Shown piece after piece: positions 39,106 through 45,231 of a stretch of 64,000 nt of DNA; within the stretch, counting starts at the first letter, position 1; every line of letters begins with the position of its first letter. The DNA is from Escherichia coli (GTDB lineage: Bacteria; Pseudomonadota; Gammaproteobacteria; Enterobacterales; Enterobacteriaceae), in assembly GCF_003334355.1 (NCBI RefSeq), contig NZ_QOWP01000023.1; one strand, given 5' to 3'. The notes under the pieces were generated by a model. It searched no databases. It had not been told where the DNA came from and saw only the letters and a program-made list of their open reading frames with translations. The position numbers and the translations under genes were made by a program.

Positions 39106-40656
39106 ATGCCCACTTCTGATGAAAATGCACTGCAACAACGTTGCCAGCAAATTGTCACCAGCCCAGTGCTTAGCCCGGAGCAGAAGCGCCATTTTCTGGC
39201 ACTTGAAGCAGAAAACAATCTGCCTTATCCGCAGCTGCCTGCCGAAGCCCGCCGTGCGCTGGATGAGGGTGTAATCTGCGATATGTTTGAAGGTCATGCG
39301 CCGTACAAACCGCGCTATGTCTTACCCGATTACGCCCGTTTTCTGGCGAACGGTTCCGAATGGCTGGAGCTGGAAGGCGCGAAAGATCTTGATGACGCAC
39401 TCTCTCTGCTGACCATTCTTTACCACCACGTACCGTCGGTCACATCGATGCCGGTCTACCTGGGGCAACTGGATGCGTTGTTGCAACCGTATGTTAGAAT
39501 TCTAACACAAGACGAGATCGATATTCGAATAAAACGTTTCTGGCGTTACCTCGACAGAACCCTGCCAGACGCCTTTATGCACGCCAATATCGGCCCGTCT
39601 GATTCGCCCATTACCCGTGCAATCTTACGTGCAGACGCAGAGTTGAAGCAGGTTTCACCGAACCTGACCTTTATCTACGATCCTGAAATCACCCCTGATG
39701 ACCTACTGCTGGAAGTGGCGAAGAACATCTGTGAATGTAGCAAACCGCACATCGCCAACGGTCCGGTGCATGATAAAATTTTCACAAAAGGGGGCTACGG
39801 GATTGTGAGCTGTTACAACTCACTGCCGCTGGCGGGTGGTGGCAGCACGCTGGTACGCCTTAACCTGAAAGCCATTGCCGAGCGCAGCGAATCGCTGGAT
39901 GACTTCTTTACGCGCACTCTACCGCACTACTGCCAGCAGCAGATCGCCATCATTGATGCGCGGTGTGAATTCCTCTATCAACAATCACACTTCTTTGAGA
40001 ATAGCTTCCTGGTGAAAGAAGGGCTGATTAACCCTGAACGTTTTGTGCCAATGTTTGGCATGTATGGGCTGGCGGAAGCGGTTAACTTGCTGTGTGAGAA
40101 AGAAGGGATTGCCGCGCGCTACGGTAAAGAAGCCGCCGCAAATGAAGTGGGTTATCGCATCAGCGCGCAACTGGCGGAGTTTGTCGCCAATACCCCCGTG
40201 AAATATGGCTGGCAAAAACGCGCCATGTTACACGCACAGTCGGGGATCAGTTCCGATATCGGCACCACGCCGGGCGCGCGTTTACCCTATGGCGATGAGC
40301 CAGATCCGATCACCCATCTGCAAACTGTCGCCCCGCATCATGCTTATTATTATTCCGGCATCAGCGACATTCTGACGCTCGACGAAACCATCAAACGTAA
40401 TCCGCAGGCGCTGGTACAGCTTTGCCTCGGTGCCTTTAAAGCCGGAATGCGTGAATTTACCGCCAATGTCAGCGGTAACGATCTGGTTCGCGTTACCGGT
40501 TATATGGTGCGTTTGTCGGATTTAGAAAAATATCGCGCCGAAGGTTCACGCACCAACACCACCTGGCTGGGCGAAGAAGCCGCACGCAACACTCGTATTC
40601 TGGAACGCCAGCCGCGCGTGATAAGCCATGAACAGCAGATGCGCTTTAGTCAGTAA
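39106..40656 (+). CDS. yjjI: Glycyl-radical-enzyme-like protein YjjI
   Basis: 516-aa ORF; C-terminal RVTGY motif (variant of the glycyl-radical fingerprint RVSGY). Confidence 0.9.
39492..39507. promoter_or_regulatory. DeoR operator (deoP1, O1) inside the yjjI coding sequence
   Basis: Perfect palindrome TGTTAGAATTCTAACA; centre is 599 bp from the O2 centre, matching the known O1-O2 spacing. Confidence 0.65.
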
Positions 40657-41491
40657 GATTATCCCCTTCTCCTGCGTTGACGGGCCAGGCAGTCGTCTGG
40701 CTCTGTTTTTGCAGGGCTGCAATCTGCGCTGCAAAAACTGTCACAATCCGTGGACGATGGGGCGCTGTAATCATTGCGGAGAGTGCGTGCCACAGTGTCC
40801 GCATCAGGCGTTGCAGATTGTTGACGGCAAAGTGGTGTGGAACGCTGCGGTCTGCGAGCAGTGTGATACCTGCCTGAAGAGGTGTCCGCAACATGCCACG
40901 CCGATGGCGCAATCCATGAGCGTGGACGAAGTGCTTAGCCATGTCCGCAAAGCGGTGCTGTTTATTGAAGGGATAACGGTAAGCGGCGGCGAAGCCACGA
41001 CCCAACTGCCGTTTGTAGTGGCGCTGTTTACTGCTATCAAAAACGATCCGCAACTGCGCCATCTCACCTGTCTGGTGGACAGTAACGGCATGTTGAGCGA
41101 AACCGGCTGGGAAAAATTACTCCCGGTGTGTGACGGCGCAATGCTCGATCTCAAAGCATGGGGTAGCGAATGTCATCAACAATTAACCGGACGCGATAAT
41201 CAGCAGATTAAGCGCAGCATCTGTTTGCTGGCAGAGCGCGGCAAGCTGGCGGAACTGCGTTTGCTGGTAATCCCTGGCCAGGTGGATTATTTGCAACACA
41301 TCGAAGAACTGGCGGCGTTTATCAAGGGACTTGGCGATGTTCCGGTACGCCTGAACGCGTTTCATGCCCACGGCGTGTATGGCGAGGCGCAAAGCTGGGC
41401 GAGCGCCACGCCGGAAGACGTTGAGCCGTTGGCTGATGCATTAAAGGTGCGCGGGGGGGGCCGGTTGATATTTCCGGCGCTGTATTTGTGA
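40628..41491 (+). CDS. yjjW: Radical SAM glycyl-radical activating enzyme YjjW
   Basis: 287-aa ORF with CNLRCKNC (CX3CX2C) radical-SAM motif plus two ferredoxin-like Cys clusters ([24 protein letters not shown]); overlaps the yjjI 3' end. Confidence 0.9.
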
Positions 41492-41493
41492 CA

Positions 41494-41998
<505 letters not shown>

Positions 41999-42007
41999 AA
42001 GGGTAAA

Positions 42008-42790
42008 CTACCCACTAACGCTAAACAACGCATACGTATTATTAAGCAACACTTCGGCAATCTCATCTTCTGGTTCCGGGCGCAACTCGCAAAGCACGTC
42101 AAACACCCGCACAGCCTGTTCCGGTCGGTTAGGCTGCCCCTGAAAGCCGTTGAGCGGCATATCCGGCGCGTCGGTTTCCAGCAACAACGATGCCAGCGGT
42201 AATTTTGCGATGACATCGCGGGTTTTACTGGCGCGTGGATAGGTGATAGTACCGCCTACGCCGATTTTGTAGCCCAGCTGTACAAACCGCTCGGCCTGTT
42301 GCAGGCTGCCGGAAAAACCGTGAACCACGCCAGTGCACGGTAAATCGTGACGTTTAAGATGCATCGCCAGTTTGTCGTGTGTACGCCGGGAATGAAGGAT
42401 CACCGGCAGATCGTAGCGTTTCGCCAGTTTCAGCTGTTCGTCGAGTAACCACTGCTGCCTCTCAAATTGCGGATCGTCGCCGAAGAGATCCAGACCGATC
42501 TCCCCCACCGCCACCACCTTCGCCGGACGCCTTTCCAGCGCCTGCTGTAGCTGATCAAGAGACACATCGCTATGTTTTTCCAACATCCCCGGATGCAACC
42601 CCAATGCGGCATACAGCGGTTGATATTTTTCCGCTAACGCCTGCACGCGGGCAAAATTTTCCGCCTCTGTCGCCGGAACAATGATCTTGCCTACGCCCGC
42701 TTGTGCCGCGCGTTGCAGGCTGGCCTCTTCATCGCCACTAAACGGCGGGAAATCAAAATGGCAGTGGGTATCGATAAAACGGCAAATCAA
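42008..42790 (-). CDS. yjjV: TatD-family metal-dependent hydrolase YjjV
   Basis: 260-aa ORF with IDTHCHFDF metal-binding motif. Confidence 0.9.
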   Translation of the reverse strand: MICRFIDTHCHFDFPPFSGDEEASLQRAAQAGVGKIIVPATEAENFARVQALAEKYQPLYAALGLHPGMLEKHSDVSLDQLQQALERRPAKVVAVGEIGLDLFGDDPQFERQQWLLDEQLKLAKRYDLPVILHSRRTHDKLAMHLKRHDLPCTGVVHGFSGSLQQAERFVQLGYKIGVGGTITYPRASKTRDVIAKLPLASLLLETDAPDMPLNGFQGQPNRPEQAVRVFDVLCELRPEPEDEIAEVLLNNTYALFSVSG

Positions 42791-43860
42791 GCCAGATCCT
42801 CATTGTTAAATGTCGGGTCGTTCGCCTGCGGAGCATCGCTCACTTCGGCAACCAGCGTATCGTTGGCGACTGGCGCAGGCGGAATAACGATCGATTCCGG
42901 CGTCACCACTGGCACCAGATGGCGGGTAAGCGGCGCTTTTTCAGTTAATAGCTTGCCAACCGTGGCGAGGAAATAACGACCGCATAAACGCCCAAGTTTA
43001 TAGTCTTCACGCAGCGCCGGAATCCGACTGCCAAGCGCGATACTATGTAATGGTTTCGGTGGATAAATTTCGAATATCCGCAGCTTGCCCGGTGGTTTCT
43101 CAATAAATTGCTGAATGTCACGATAGCTGGTTTCATGATGCTGCACCAGATTGACCAGCGGCTGCAGGCTACTGTCACCCAGCCAGCGTTCCATGCGTTT
43201 GAACCACTGCGGCGTGTAGTACATTTGTGACGGCACAGTGCGGATGACGACCAACGTTTTAGCGCCCTGCCTTGCCGCCTCTTTAACCGGAATCGCATCA
43301 CTGATCCCGCCATCCAGGTAGTTAATGCCTTCCAGCGACACTCCGCTACGATAAAAGCCAGGTATCGCACTGGAGGCGCGAATCACATCCAGCCAGTTTT
43401 GTTTGGTTGGTAAAAAGTAATTAGGCGCGTAGTCATCCTGACGACAGGCGCACATATAAAACGATTTGCCGCTGTCAAACAACCGCGCGGCGGTATCCAT
43501 TTGCAACGGCATCTGGCTTGCGGTGGCCTCCACCAGCCAGTCGAGATCGATAAGATTTCCTCCACGGACAAAGCGCAATGGATCGAAAAATTCGCGTTTT
43601 GTGGTATAGCACATGATGACTTTGCGCGCGTAACCGGGCTGATTGCAGATAAACGCCGAGAGGTTCTGCGCCCCGGCAGATGTGCCGAGATAAAGATCGA
43701 AAGGATTAAACTGCGCGCGCATAAACTCATCCAGCACGCCAGCCGTGAAAATTCCACGCTGTCCGCCGCCTTCGCACACCAGAGCTATTCGTCCAGGCTG
43801 GAACGGCCTTAGCGACAACGGCGCAATATTACCAAGCGTTACAGGTATTCGCTGCCCCAC
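42787..43860 (-). CDS. yjjU: Patatin-like phospholipase YjjU
   Basis: GGGQRG oxyanion motif and GTSAG nucleophile elbow; probable GTG start (357 aa); 4-bp overlap with yjjV. Confidence 0.85.
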   Translation of the reverse strand: MGQRIPVTLGNIAPLSLRPFQPGRIALVCEGGGQRGIFTAGVLDEFMRAQFNPFDLYLGTSAGAQNLSAFICNQPGYARKVIMCYTTKREFFDPLRFVRGGNLIDLDWLVEATASQMPLQMDTAARLFDSGKSFYMCACRQDDYAPNYFLPTKQNWLDVIRASSAIPGFYRSGVSLEGINYLDGGISDAIPVKEAARQGAKTLVVIRTVPSQMYYTPQWFKRMERWLGDSSLQPLVNLVQHHETSYRDIQQFIEKPPGKLRIFEIYPPKPLHSIALGSRIPALREDYKLGRLCGRYFLATVGKLLTEKAPLTRHLVPVVTPESIVIPPAPVANDTLVAEVSDAPQANDPTFNNEDLA

Positions 43861-43981
43861 CTCTGCCTTCCTGTTTTTGTTGTGAAAGAATGACAAAGTA
43901 ACGCAATTTATTATTCGCTAAAACCGCAAAAGCCAGTCCGCTGGACTGGCTTTGGATAAAATTTTCTTAATGGTCTGAAAT

Positions 43982-44143
43982 CTAGGGTCGTTTTCGGCCC
44001 ATGAACAAACTCACCAGGAACAGAATAATCCCGACGACAAAGACAATTTTAGCTGCGCCTGCAGCGGTACCGGCCAGACCACCAAACCCAAGTGCGGCGG
44101 CGATTAACGCGATAACCAGAAATATGATGCCCCAACGAAACAT
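43982..44143 (-). CDS. ytjA: Small membrane protein YtjA
   Basis: 53-aa [25 protein letters not shown]... (trimmed from the 63-aa ORF-track call). Confidence 0.75.
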
Positions 44144-44269
44144 AAGCGTCTCCTTTACCATAGTTAATGTCACCGCTTGATATGAGCGTGAAAATCACTC
44201 AATGCGATATTTTTAGTGTGGTGCACATCGCGCCTCCCGACAAAGTTCGGGAGGACGAATTACGACGAA

Positions 44270-44875
44270 TTACTTAGTTTTCAGATCATTTTTAACGCTT
44301 TTCACACCATCTACCGCTTTGGCGATACTTTCAGCACGGTCGCTCTGTGCCTGGGAATCGACGGTACCGGAGAGCTGAACCACGCCGTCGGTGGTTTCAA
44401 CTTTCACATGACGGGAAGGGACGATATCGTCCGCCAGCAGTTTGGCTTTGATTTCACTGGTGGTGGCGGTGTCACCCGCGTAGCCCTTCACAGAGCCTTC
44501 TTTAGCGTCGCGAACGTGCAGTTTGTCGCTGACAGAGGTCACCCCTTCAACGCCTTTCGCCACTTTCACTGCCTCTTCGGCCTGAGCCTGGCTTTCAACG
44601 AAACCGCTCAGGGTCACGACTTTTTGATCGGTTTTGACAGAGATATCGGTGCTCTTGATGTTGTCATGATCCACCAGGGCCGCCTTCACTTTCGCGGTGA
44701 TGGCGCTGTCATCCATGAAATTACCGACTTTATTCATAGAGCTATCGACTTTTTGCCCTGCGCTTTCATTGGTAGTCTGCGCGTTGTTTTCCGCGTAGGC
44801 AGAGCCTGTCGCGACGGCAGAGGTCAACATTACAGCCAGCAGAGTTTTCGAAATCTTCAGTCTTGTCATAGTCAT
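44270..44875 (-). CDS. osmY: Osmotically inducible periplasmic protein OsmY
   Basis: Start trimmed to [28 protein letters not shown] (201 aa); two BON domains. Confidence 0.95.
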
Positions 44876-45231
44876 CGATTTATTCCTGTAAGTTTGCTCG
44901 TAATTTGAGCCTGGCAACACGAGGTTGCATTGCTGAATAGGGAGAGACTTCACCCTCTACAGAAGTCAATGGTCGCCATCACAAAAGCGATGGGTGATGA
45001 ATAACGACCATTACAGCCTCTGAATCAGTTATTAATATCGGTAGAATGACAATCTACGGCTTTAGATACTGATATCTACGCATTGAACGGTATTTAACGC
45101 CGTCAGAAATGTCATTACTTTGTTAAATATAGATCACAATTTTGAAACCGCTCGGGATATCATCGAAAACATAAGCAAAAGTGAATGTTTTAAGAACATT
45201 CCGTAAGCGGCTAATAAGGAAGGGAAATTGA

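Follow-up and report, generated by a model that had tools for sequence, protein, structure and literature searches.

Introduction

The closest described counterpart of the locus considered here is the yjjUV unit of Escherichia coli K-12, which comprises yjjU (b4377) and yjjV (b4378), is listed as an operon in RegulonDB, and has osmY-ytjA upstream and the BIME, yjjW, and yjjI downstream. The pair is already known, consisting of annotated genes in an ordinary layout, and the crystal structure and nuclease activities of YjjV, as well as membership of the GadE regulon, have been published. In array experiments, yjjUV is listed as one transcription unit, and expression of YdeO induces both genes approximately 4-fold (log10 induction of 0.58/0.63 for yjjU and 0.58/0.62 for yjjV), a response that is lost in a gadE mutant (PMC4222967). 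It has further been reported that yjjU is regulated by GadE and GadX, and that its knockout is implicated in general acid resistance, weakening it (PMC4918353). A literature search combining patatin, TatD, and operon returned nothing on yjjUV.

With respect to YjjV, the relevant relatives are TatD (ExoXI), YcfH, and human TATDN3, which, like YjjV, are TIM-barrel, metal-dependent nucleases of the TatD family with 3'-exonuclease and AP-endonuclease activity; group II of this family is defined by an HxH motif and is common to YjjV, YcfH, and TATDN3 (PMC10085689). E. coli YjjV displays weak 3'-exonuclease activity on ssDNA and weak AP-endonuclease activity on dsDNA and is the least active and least soluble in vitro of TatD, YcfH, and YjjV, and a tatD/ycfH/yjjV triple mutant behaves as does the tatD single mutant (PMC10085689). 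Among these genes, yjjV is the one whose neighborhood was analyzed here, and it appears to be coupled to a lipase gene.

With respect to YjjU, the described systems are more distant. CapV and CapE, effectors of CBASS, have the same fold and the same Ser-Asp/oxyanion-hole chemistry; they differ, however, in that YjjU lacks a cyclase partner and is encoded by a core rather than an accessory gene. Pseudomonas aeruginosa PlpD and RssA (YchK), the second patatin-like protein of E. coli, are bacterial members of the group with the same conserved motif blocks. PlpD, the passenger of a type Vd autotransporter, is secreted, whereas YjjU has neither a signal nor a transmembrane segment and carries in addition a DUF6363 region and a tail predicted to be disordered. 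In the searchable literature, no biochemical assay of YjjU came to light, and a search on DUF6363 returned nothing.

The gene pair

The window, by which is meant the whole stretch of 64,000 nucleotides analyzed from E. coli contig NZ_QOWP01000023.1, matches E. coli ATCC 8739 at 100% identity and carries the RefSeq annotation of both yjjU and yjjV, with positions 42787-43860 corresponding to the RefSeq yjjU CDS of that genome. The genes and elements concerned are the following.

42787-43860, minus strand: yjjU coding sequence, 357 aa, GTG start, TGA stop; patatin-like phospholipase family protein (RefSeq annotation)
42008-42790, minus strand: yjjV coding sequence, starting at TTG and encoding 260 aa; metal-dependent hydrolase of the TatD family, group II (HxH)
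41503-41990, strand not assigned: BIME/REP array, a 101-bp unit repeated 4.8 times, in the interval where yjjV and yjjW converge with their 3' ends
39106-41491, plus strand: glycyl-radical pair yjjI/yjjW, beyond the BIME array from yjjV

Genes, order, junction, and neighbors are all identical to those of K-12, from which the pair departs by allelic substitutions only, YjjU being 98% identical to its top protein cluster and YjjV 97% identical to a major E. coli cluster. The first-pass annotation had described a patatin-like YjjU bearing both patatin motifs, the stop codon of which overlaps by 4 bp the start of a TatD-like yjjV, the two genes lying across the BIME array from the glycyl-radical pair. 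This description is correct throughout, as the RefSeq assignment, the Pfam matches of YjjU to Patatin (PF01734, E 4.2e-23) and of YjjV to TatD_DNase (PF01026, E 3.7e-75), and the positions of the motifs, overlap, and array attest.

The two proteins

The translation of yjjU begins V/M-GQRIPV and ends NNEDLA*, and the position of its start codon (GTG or ATG) is kept in 79/79 loci. The match to Patatin aligns residues 27-195 with model positions 1-190 of 191, and its E-value implies that the match did not arise by chance. The features of the protein, from the amino terminus, are listed below.

43753-43770, minus strand: oxyanion-hole motif GGGQRG, YjjU residues 31-36, fitting G-G-G-x-[KR]-G
43672-43686, minus strand: nucleophile elbow GTSAG, residues 59-63, with the catalytic Ser61, fitting G-x-S-x-G
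43306-43314, minus strand: DGG motif, residues 183-185, with the catalytic Asp183 of the Ser-Asp dyad, fitting D-G-[AG]
42946-43161, minus strand: DUF6363 region, residues 234-305 (Pfam PF19890, E 3.6e-22)
42790-42945, minus strand: C-terminal tail, residues 306-357, poorly conserved and predicted to be disordered

Within these motifs, G31 and G32, then G59, S61, and G63, and finally D183 and G184 show no variation across 71 homologues, the range of which extends down to 27% identity. The AlphaFold2 (AF2) model of YjjU (pLDDT 88.9, pTM 0.87) adopts a patatin alpha/beta fold, for which Foldseek returned a probability of 1.0 to CapV, CapE, PlpD, patatin, and iPLA2-beta; the TM-scores of the best PDB matches (CapV, CapE, PlpD, and patatin) are about 0.5-0.6. 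CapV and CapE are the best of these, aligning over 342 columns, or nearly the whole chain, at TM 0.59, although at 15-17% sequence identity, while PlpD, also a top fold match, is the only PDB match by sequence (E 0.0028). In the same model the DUF6363 region forms a helix, a strand, and a long helix that round off the folded core, with pLDDT climbing from 75-89 at its start to 94-97, whereas in the tail the block-mean pLDDT drops from 86 to 45-63 and column conservation is 0.65-0.76, as against approximately 0.9 in the core. Transmembrane-like segments are absent from both YjjU and YjjV (maximum KD 1.12 and 0.84, respectively). Sequence and model together predict YjjU to be a patatin-type acyl hydrolase that is soluble and cytoplasmic, and its substrate may be a lipid.

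For YjjV, the Pfam match covers model positions 1-253 of 253 and the score against its own NCBIfam equivalog (NF008522) is 575.3 bits, above the cut-off of 481, in contrast to 109 bits for the equivalog of TatD and 105 bits for that of YcfH. It is also near-identical over residues 1-258 to the TIM-barrel chain 1zzm_A of the K-12 crystal structure PDB 1ZZM, “putative deoxyribonuclease yjjV” (E 2.5e-165). The TTG start is the sole in-frame ATG, GTG, or TTG upstream of the essential HxH (residues 9-11), and the alignments to both the NCBIfam YjjV model and 1ZZM begin at residue 1. The HxH is present as follows.

42758-42766, minus strand: H-C-H metal-binding motif, YjjV residues 9-11

Residues H9, H11, E97, H133, H157, E205, and D207 are invariant among 24 orthologues.

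Such likenesses admit a reading of yjjUV as a module for anti-phage defense or abortive infection, with YjjU as a CapV-like phospholipase effector and YjjV as a QatD-like nuclease effector. The PADLOC phospholipase effector and NCBIfam CBASS_lipase models do match YjjU, if weakly, the QatD models match YjjV, and the solved structures nearest to the YjjU model are those of CBASS effectors. However, the CBASS_lipase model (NF041079) scores YjjU at 25.3 bits against a cut-off of 200, and over residues 27-64 only, and YjjV reaches 104 bits with the QatD model (NF041926), the cut-off of which is 230. The neighbors of yjjU are ytjA and yjjV, neither a cyclase gene nor QatABC nor any other sensor gene lies next to the pair, and no evidence was found for activation of YjjU by cyclic nucleotides, in contrast to the CBASS effectors. 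Further, the pair is core (present in 5416/5426 complete E. coli genomes), its position is fixed in 80 species, its GC content is that of the neighboring genes, and high-identity matches in phage and plasmid collections are mislabelled chromosomal records. In a published screen, Tat operons appeared as false positives through the same TatD/QatD homology (PMC13069673). With scores far below cut-offs, partner genes absent, and the pair both core and syntenic, membership of a defense system was rejected as scarcely credible.

A second reading is that YjjU and YjjV assemble into a stoichiometric heteromeric complex, with coupled translation setting a 1:1 ratio and YjjU, perhaps via its disordered tail, stabilizing or regulating YjjV. 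Genes that overlap and are coupled frequently code for partners in a single complex, and adjacency of the pair is strictly conserved within Enterobacterales. Recombinant YjjV expressed by itself is, moreover, poorly soluble and barely active in vitro (PMC10085689). However, YjjV crystallized alone (1ZZM), relatives of each protein are found alone in other lineages, and the tail is the least conserved part of YjjU. In addition, when a YjjU-(G4S)4-YjjV fusion was modeled as a monomer with AF2 (pTM 0.49, pLDDT 72), no confident mutual placement of the two proteins was obtained, although with a shallow alignment of 24 paired orthologues, a linker, and no PAE, this is a crude test. A complex of the two proteins is considered improbable. 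A Rosetta-stone fusion of a YjjU-like protein to a TatD protein was not found, the one long homologue (P0135, 638 aa) being fused instead to an alpha/beta hydrolase.

Conservation and co-occurrence

The first-pass annotation had proposed examining co-occurrence across genomes, and the pair proved to be co-conserved within a defined range. In 80/80 sampled Enterobacteriaceae species yjjV directly follows yjjU, as it does in Yersinia and Proteus, and the block prfC-osmY-ytjA-yjjU-yjjV-...-deoC is conserved backbone synteny; the yjjU-yjjV operon belongs to the Enterobacterales core genome. Independent transcription without co-conservation, which had been named as the outcome that would speak against the pairing, is not what was found, given this adjacency and the listing of yjjUV as a unit in arrays (PMC4222967).

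Outside of the order, the association disappears. Distant YjjU-like genes (38-45% identity) have a TatD neighbor in 0/5 cases, and YjjV-like genes have a patatin neighbor in 0/3, the three latter loci coming from PLSDB records that are entered as plasmids but represent chromosomes or fragments of chromosomes. A search for distant YjjV orthologues among homologous proteins yielded close Enterobacteriaceae relatives only, so the reciprocal context consists of these three loci. In Aeromonas, the yjjV orthologue retains the nupC/deoC side of the synteny but is without yjjU. As relatives of each gene thus occur elsewhere without the partner, co-conservation is limited to Enterobacterales.

These observations may also be accommodated by a pairing without functional meaning, in which two unrelated housekeeping hydrolases have been neighbors since the Enterobacterales ancestor, their overlap reflecting genome compaction and their co-expression being a by-product of position, and in which the role of each is independent of the other enzyme and of any common stress. 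The lack of partners outside the order, the Aeromonas arrangement, and the fact that the surrounding block is backbone synteny all favor such a reading, which is weighed below against the detail of the junction.

A mobile-element origin was considered separately and rejected, as the high-identity matches that YjjU gave by tblastn in collections of phages and plasmids were confined to mislabelled chromosomal records or unannotated 3-kb fragments.

The junction between yjjU and yjjV

Two features define the junction.

42787-42790, minus strand: TTGA junction, 4 nt common to both genes, with the TTG at 42790-42788 starting yjjV and the TGA at 42789-42787 ending yjjU
42797-42801, minus strand: yjjV Shine-Dalgarno (SD) sequence GAGGA, within yjjU, 6 nt upstream of the TTG

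With both genes on the same strand, a stop/start overlap, and the SD of yjjV embedded in yjjU, the pair has the layout of a coupled bicistronic operon, and this layout suggests that translation of yjjV is coupled to that of yjjU. An NTGA overlap is found in 77/80 Enterobacteriaceae species (GTGA in 67, TTGA in 5, and ATGA in 5), and Proteus has an ATGA overlap. A GAGG-type motif for yjjV, carried by the last codons of the YjjU tail, is likewise found in 77/80 species, with the wobble G of the GAG codon invariant (2.00 bits). This detail is kept across roughly 60-100% protein identity.

Stop/start overlaps of 4 nt are among the commonest junctions between bacterial genes lying on one strand; taken by itself, the overlap is therefore unremarkable and fits a positional association. 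One orthologous Enterobacterales locus (L085) has a 238-nt gap between yjjU and yjjV, from which it follows that coupling is dispensable. In addition, a folding test detected no SD-masking RNA structure at the junction (z +0.8), so GAGGA could also permit independent initiation. However, the junction is conserved in its details, and an invariant synonymous SD position within the otherwise fast-evolving YjjU tail argues for selection on a signal of co-expression. Further, GadE induces yjjU and yjjV together (PMC4222967). A pairing devoid of functional meaning, while a serious contender, is consequently regarded as unlikely.

Transcription unit and boundaries

The ytjA-yjjU spacer measures 121 bp and contains the following elements.

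43930-43952, minus strand: 10-bp GC-rich hairpin with a U-rich tract, just after ytjA; likely osmY/ytjA terminator
43895-43924, minus strand: conserved promoter-like block, GTTTTAG (43924-43918) followed by TTGCGT-TACTTT (43905-43895), from an alignment of 79 spacers
43866-43872, minus strand: yjjU SD sequence AGGAAGG, 5 nt before the GTG; 71/79 loci have an SD-like motif

The 81-nt segment of the spacer that contains the hairpin folds at -19.5 kcal/mol (z -2.8). A hairpin follows ytjA in 74/79 species loci, and hairpin plus T-run in 63/79; in Leclercia and Silvania the sequence of the hairpin is altered, yet a hairpin is retained. As this is likely the ytjA terminator, yjjUV would be isolated from upstream transcription. 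The candidate -10 element, TACTTT, precedes the yjjU GTG by about 40 nt, and in 59/79 loci a TAC[TC][TG]T sequence is found at a distance of 25-60 nt before the yjjU start (modal distance 40 nt). Both the candidate spacer promoter and the hairpin were detected by folding and cross-species alignment, simple consensus scans for sigma-70 promoters and terminators having called neither. A SELEX site for RpoD holoenzyme has been reported in the ytjA-yjjU spacer (PMC3946193), and this peak together with the conservation points to a yjjUV promoter within the spacer. Between yjjU and yjjV, there is zero intergenic room for a promoter. At the other end, the BIME/REP array, in which four Rfam naRNA4 matches were found, marks the downstream boundary of the operon.

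Discussion

Taken together, these observations are best explained, at a probability of roughly 0.6, by a bicistronic, stress-induced yjjUV operon encoding two soluble hydrolases that act separately on different substrates. Under this explanation, the ytjA terminator hairpin would shield yjjUV from upstream transcription, and the operon would be transcribed from its own weak promoter in the ytjA-yjjU spacer, with induction proceeding through the EvgAS > YdeO > GadE acid-stress cascade. Ribosomes completing yjjU would stop at the TGA within TTGA, 6 nt past GAGGA, and could restart at the weak TTG, and a restart at this junction would tie the output of YjjV to the translation of YjjU. The YjjU so produced would employ the Ser61-Asp183 dyad and the GGGQRG oxyanion hole within a core of residues 1-305 that includes DUF6363, followed by the disordered tail, while YjjV would act as a divalent-metal nuclease of TatD group II (HxH), weakly active as a 3'-5' exonuclease and as an AP endonuclease. 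The identities of the genes, their motifs, overlap, and conservation, the GadE-dependent co-induction, the nuclease activities of YjjV, and the acid sensitivity of the yjjU knockout are established here or in published work. Coupling by re-initiation, the lipid substrate of YjjU, and a role of the two proteins in the clean-up of damage are all three inferred, the last having regulon membership as its sole basis.

It could also be imagined that YjjU and YjjV constitute a true two-enzyme stress module of Enterobacterales rather than chance neighbors, although this is a long shot. In one version, the two might form a physical complex in which an otherwise insoluble YjjV is stabilized or regulated by YjjU. 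In another, the two might be a dedicated pair for repairing acid damage, an AP endonuclease dealing with acid depurination being produced in constant proportion to a lipase for remodeling membrane lipids damaged by acid. By analogy with its nearest structural relatives, the ligand-activated CapV and CapE, there is also the possibility that YjjU is switched on by a small molecule.

Returning to the preferred explanation of two separately acting hydrolases in one operon, what is added here to the published record is that the overlap and the internal SD appear to be under purifying selection across Enterobacteriaceae, with the overlapping junction reaching Proteus, that the link between yjjU and yjjV is lineage-specific, and that the reading as a defense system can be dropped. 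For a y-gene pair that was already known, these refinements are modest and add little beyond annotation. The two core enzymes would not work as one machine: in acid stress or stationary phase, YjjU would act on damaged membrane glycerolipids and YjjV, separately, on DNA that is depurinated or 3'-damaged.

Gene content and encoded proteins

Positions 41400-44300 of the window match E. coli ATCC 8739 at 100% identity, and by the annotation of RefSeq NC_010468.1 the window's minus strand carries osmY, ytjA, yjjU and yjjV in that order, with yjjW and yjjI convergent on the plus strand. The features on which the analysis turns are as follows.

42787-43860, minus strand: yjjU, exactly as annotated in RefSeq; GTG start, 357 aa
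42008-42790, minus strand: yjjV, TatD-family hydrolase gene; 260 aa
42787-42790, minus strand: TTGA, the four bases common to both coding sequences
43930-43952: 10-bp GC-rich hairpin followed by a U-rich tract, in the ytjA-yjjU spacer
41503-41990: BIME/REP array, 4.8 copies of 101 bp

The GC content of yjjU and yjjV is like that of the neighboring genes, and neither product contains a transmembrane-like hydrophobic segment. Mechanical open reading frames extend upstream of the annotated starts of ytjA (43982-44173, minus strand; 63 aa versus 53 aa in RefSeq) and osmY (44270-44953, minus strand; 227 aa versus 201 aa), and that of yjjU reaches a TTG at 43896, a start to which conservation gives no support.

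The first-pass annotation had described yjjU and yjjV as a translationally coupled, lipase/nuclease-like pair. Both patatin motifs that it read in yjjU are present, the oxyanion motif GGGQRG (residues 31-36) and GTSAG (residues 59-63), and a third, DGG at residues 183-185, completes the Ser-Asp dyad; 71 aligned homologs, with identity down to 27%, show no variation at G31, G32, G59, S61, G63, D183 or G184. Pfam places a Patatin domain at residues 27-195 (E 4.2e-23) and DUF6363 at residues 234-305 (E 3.6e-22). The AlphaFold2 model (mean pLDDT 88.9, pTM 0.87) is confident over residues 1-305 and predicts a disordered tail for residues 306-357; among solved structures it most resembles those of the CBASS effectors CapV and CapE, PlpD, potato patatin and iPLA2-beta, with a probability of 1.0, a TM of about 0.5-0.6 and 15-20% identity. 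Literature searches returned nothing on DUF6363 and no biochemical characterization of YjjU.

The TatD-like assignment of yjjV likewise stands, as its product matches PF01026 (E 3.7e-75), scores 575 bits against the NCBIfam YjjV equivalog (cut-off 481) and is essentially the crystallized protein 1ZZM. Purified YjjV is poorly soluble and acts weakly as a 3'-exonuclease on ssDNA and as an AP-endonuclease on dsDNA; Tat export does not need YjjV, TatD or YcfH, and in H2O2 sensitivity the triple mutant is like the single tatD mutant (PMC10085689). A physical complex between YjjU and YjjV received no support from structure prediction, which is a weak test (pTM 0.49).

The yjjU-yjjV junction

On the minus strand yjjU ends in AAT GAG GAT CTG GCT TGA and yjjV begins TTG ATT TGC CGT, so that the 4-bp overlap of stop and start is as first described. 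A Shine-Dalgarno sequence, GAGGA, precedes the TTG by 6 nt, and no other start is possible ahead of YjjV's essential HxH motif (residues 9-11). When the orthologous locus was compared across 80 Enterobacteriaceae species, the junction was NTGA in 77 (GTGA 67, ATGA 5, TTGA 5), a 1-nt overlap (TGATG or TAATG) in two and a start 2 nt past the stop in one. The TTG start (42788-42790) is restricted to Escherichia (5/5 loci, L002-L006), which thus has the weakest yjjV start codon at this junction; the same overlapping position in other genera (L007-L081) holds GTG in 67 loci and ATG in 5. Outside Enterobacteriaceae, an ATGA overlap recurs in Proteus mirabilis, at protein identities of 60% and 58%, and the Yersinia junction is either TAATG or an ATG placed 20 nt downstream. 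One Enterobacterales locus (L085, assembly GCA_002632765.1) has a 238-nt spacer; there, a roughly 240-nt insert of palindromic, GC-rich, repeat-like sequence (5150-5393) abolishes the overlap.

A GAGG-type motif precedes the yjjV start in 77/80 species, and the synonymous third position of its GAG codon is invariant (2.00 bits). Because this base is fixed inside the least conserved part of YjjU (column conservation 0.65-0.76 versus about 0.9 in the core), the comparison points to selection acting on the ribosome-binding signal of yjjV itself. No stable RNA structure masking the Shine-Dalgarno sequence was predicted (z +0.8); any coupling would therefore proceed by termination/re-initiation or local ribosome delivery rather than by unmasking.

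Operon boundaries and regulation

Published data bear out co-expression: yjjUV is a single RegulonDB transcription unit, YdeO overexpression induced both genes equally (log10 ratios 0.58 and 0.63 for yjjU, 0.58 and 0.62 for yjjV), and this induction was gone in a gadE mutant (-0.39/-0.41 and -0.11/-0.28, respectively) (PMC4222967). A genome-wide GadEWX study found yjjU to be regulated by GadE and GadX, and implicated its knockout in general, not glutamate-dependent, acid resistance (PMC4918353). Evolution experiments have yielded yjjU point mutations, and yjjU deletion shifted the growth rate of PTS-minus strains by about 23% (PMC3469383).

Upstream, the ytjA-yjjU spacer is 121 bp long, and an 81-nt segment containing the hairpin folds at -19.5 kcal/mol (z -2.8). 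The hairpin occurs in 74/79 species loci, together with a T-run in 63, and has a different sequence in Leclercia and Silvania. Past it lie a conserved block, GTTTnAG ... TTGCGTTACTTTGT, and then an AGGAAGG Shine-Dalgarno sequence; the TACTTT-like hexamer of the block stands 25-60 nt (modal 40 nt) upstream of the start codon in 59/79 loci. RNA polymerase-RpoD is reported to bind exactly this spacer in genomic SELEX (PMC3946193). The yjjU promoter placed here is a candidate, because a simple consensus scan of the spacer called neither promoter nor terminator.

Downstream, 17 nt separate the end of yjjV from the BIME/REP array, which sits between yjjV and convergent yjjW and so places the glycyl-radical pair across the array, as proposed. 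Four tandem units at 41530-41911 match Rfam naRNA4 (nucleoid-associated ncRNA 4, RF02564; 74-84 bits, gathering threshold 59.5), all on the minus strand, which is that of yjjV, and one also on the plus strand.

Conservation of the pair and its limits

Co-conservation, the other half of the proposed test, holds within Enterobacterales: yjjV directly follows yjjU in 80/80 Enterobacteriaceae species, the pair recurs in Yersinia and Proteus, and it is present in 5416/5426 complete E. coli genomes. The observation is confirmed and its interpretation supported. A defence-system reading is excluded: model scores for both proteins are sub-threshold, partner genes are absent from the neighborhood, the pair is near-universal in E. 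coli, its synteny is fixed across the 80 species, and the collections searched hold no true phage or plasmid copies. Two short, unannotated INPHARED "phage" records (OR845353.1 and OR850981.1, H11 and H12; 3.1 and 3.8 kb) and PLSDB "plasmid" records of 0.4-5.4 Mb (H19-H30) contain yjjU-yjjV of chromosomal origin; to all appearances these are chromosomes, whole or in fragments, under a wrong label, and they could misdirect analyses of mobility.

Across the genomes compared, the link is lineage-specific. No TatD neighbor accompanies five distant Patatin+DUF6363 homologs (38-45% identity), one of which, P0135, is a fusion with an alpha/beta-hydrolase (Hydrolase_4) domain, and no patatin neighbor accompanies three YjjV-like genes outside Enterobacterales, of which that of Pseudomonas veronii follows cra. 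Loci beyond the order are listed here.

4001-5917 of L091 and L092 (assemblies GCA_007989845.1 and GCA_009727845.1): gene for P0135, a YjjU-like Patatin+DUF6363 protein (638 aa, 38% identity) with a C-terminal alpha/beta-hydrolase domain (Abhydrolase_1 / Hydrolase_4)
3995-7726 of L095 (NZ_AP026896.1, a 4.9-Mb record filed as plasmid): Aeromonas caviae yjjV region
4007-5399 of L097 (NZ_CP011515.1): Mitsuaria sp. 7 YjjV-like locus

The natural fusion in P0135 points to a role of its patatin subfamily in lipid or ester metabolism. The Mitsuaria TatD gene (41% identity) shares 8 nt with the beginning of a gene for DNA-deoxyinosine glycosylase, an arrangement that fits a base-excision or AP-site-processing role for the YjjV-like clade; the glycosylase generates AP sites in base-excision repair. 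The Aeromonas ortholog (48% identity) adjoins deoC and a nupC-like gene, the arrangement also seen in Yersinia and Proteus, with no yjjU in the 4 kb upstream; the synteny of yjjV with deo must therefore predate, or reach further than, its link to yjjU.

The glycyl-radical pair was not found in the fetched flank downstream of yjjV in at least 14/80 Enterobacteriaceae species (L015, L018, L029, L034, L037, L039, L041, L052, L055, L065, L066, L068, L069 and L073), for two of which the locus is shorter, and Yersinia and Proteus have a nupC-like gene in its place; yjjI/yjjW varies from genome to genome as an insert that separates yjjV from deoC, outside the conserved yjjUV unit. Among E. coli, 34 records match window positions 41400-44300 at 80-90% DNA identity and 436 at 90-95%, and a pan-genome study flagged yjjU, at 80% DNA identity in ECOR53, as a "high divergence orthologue" (PMC12595684), which together suggest that some strains carry recombinant or deeply diverged alleles of the region.

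Everything essential on yjjU-yjjV is already annotated or published. On the most economical view, the ancestor of Enterobacterales brought two independently functioning hydrolases together in a small stress-induced operon, and they have been coupled since.
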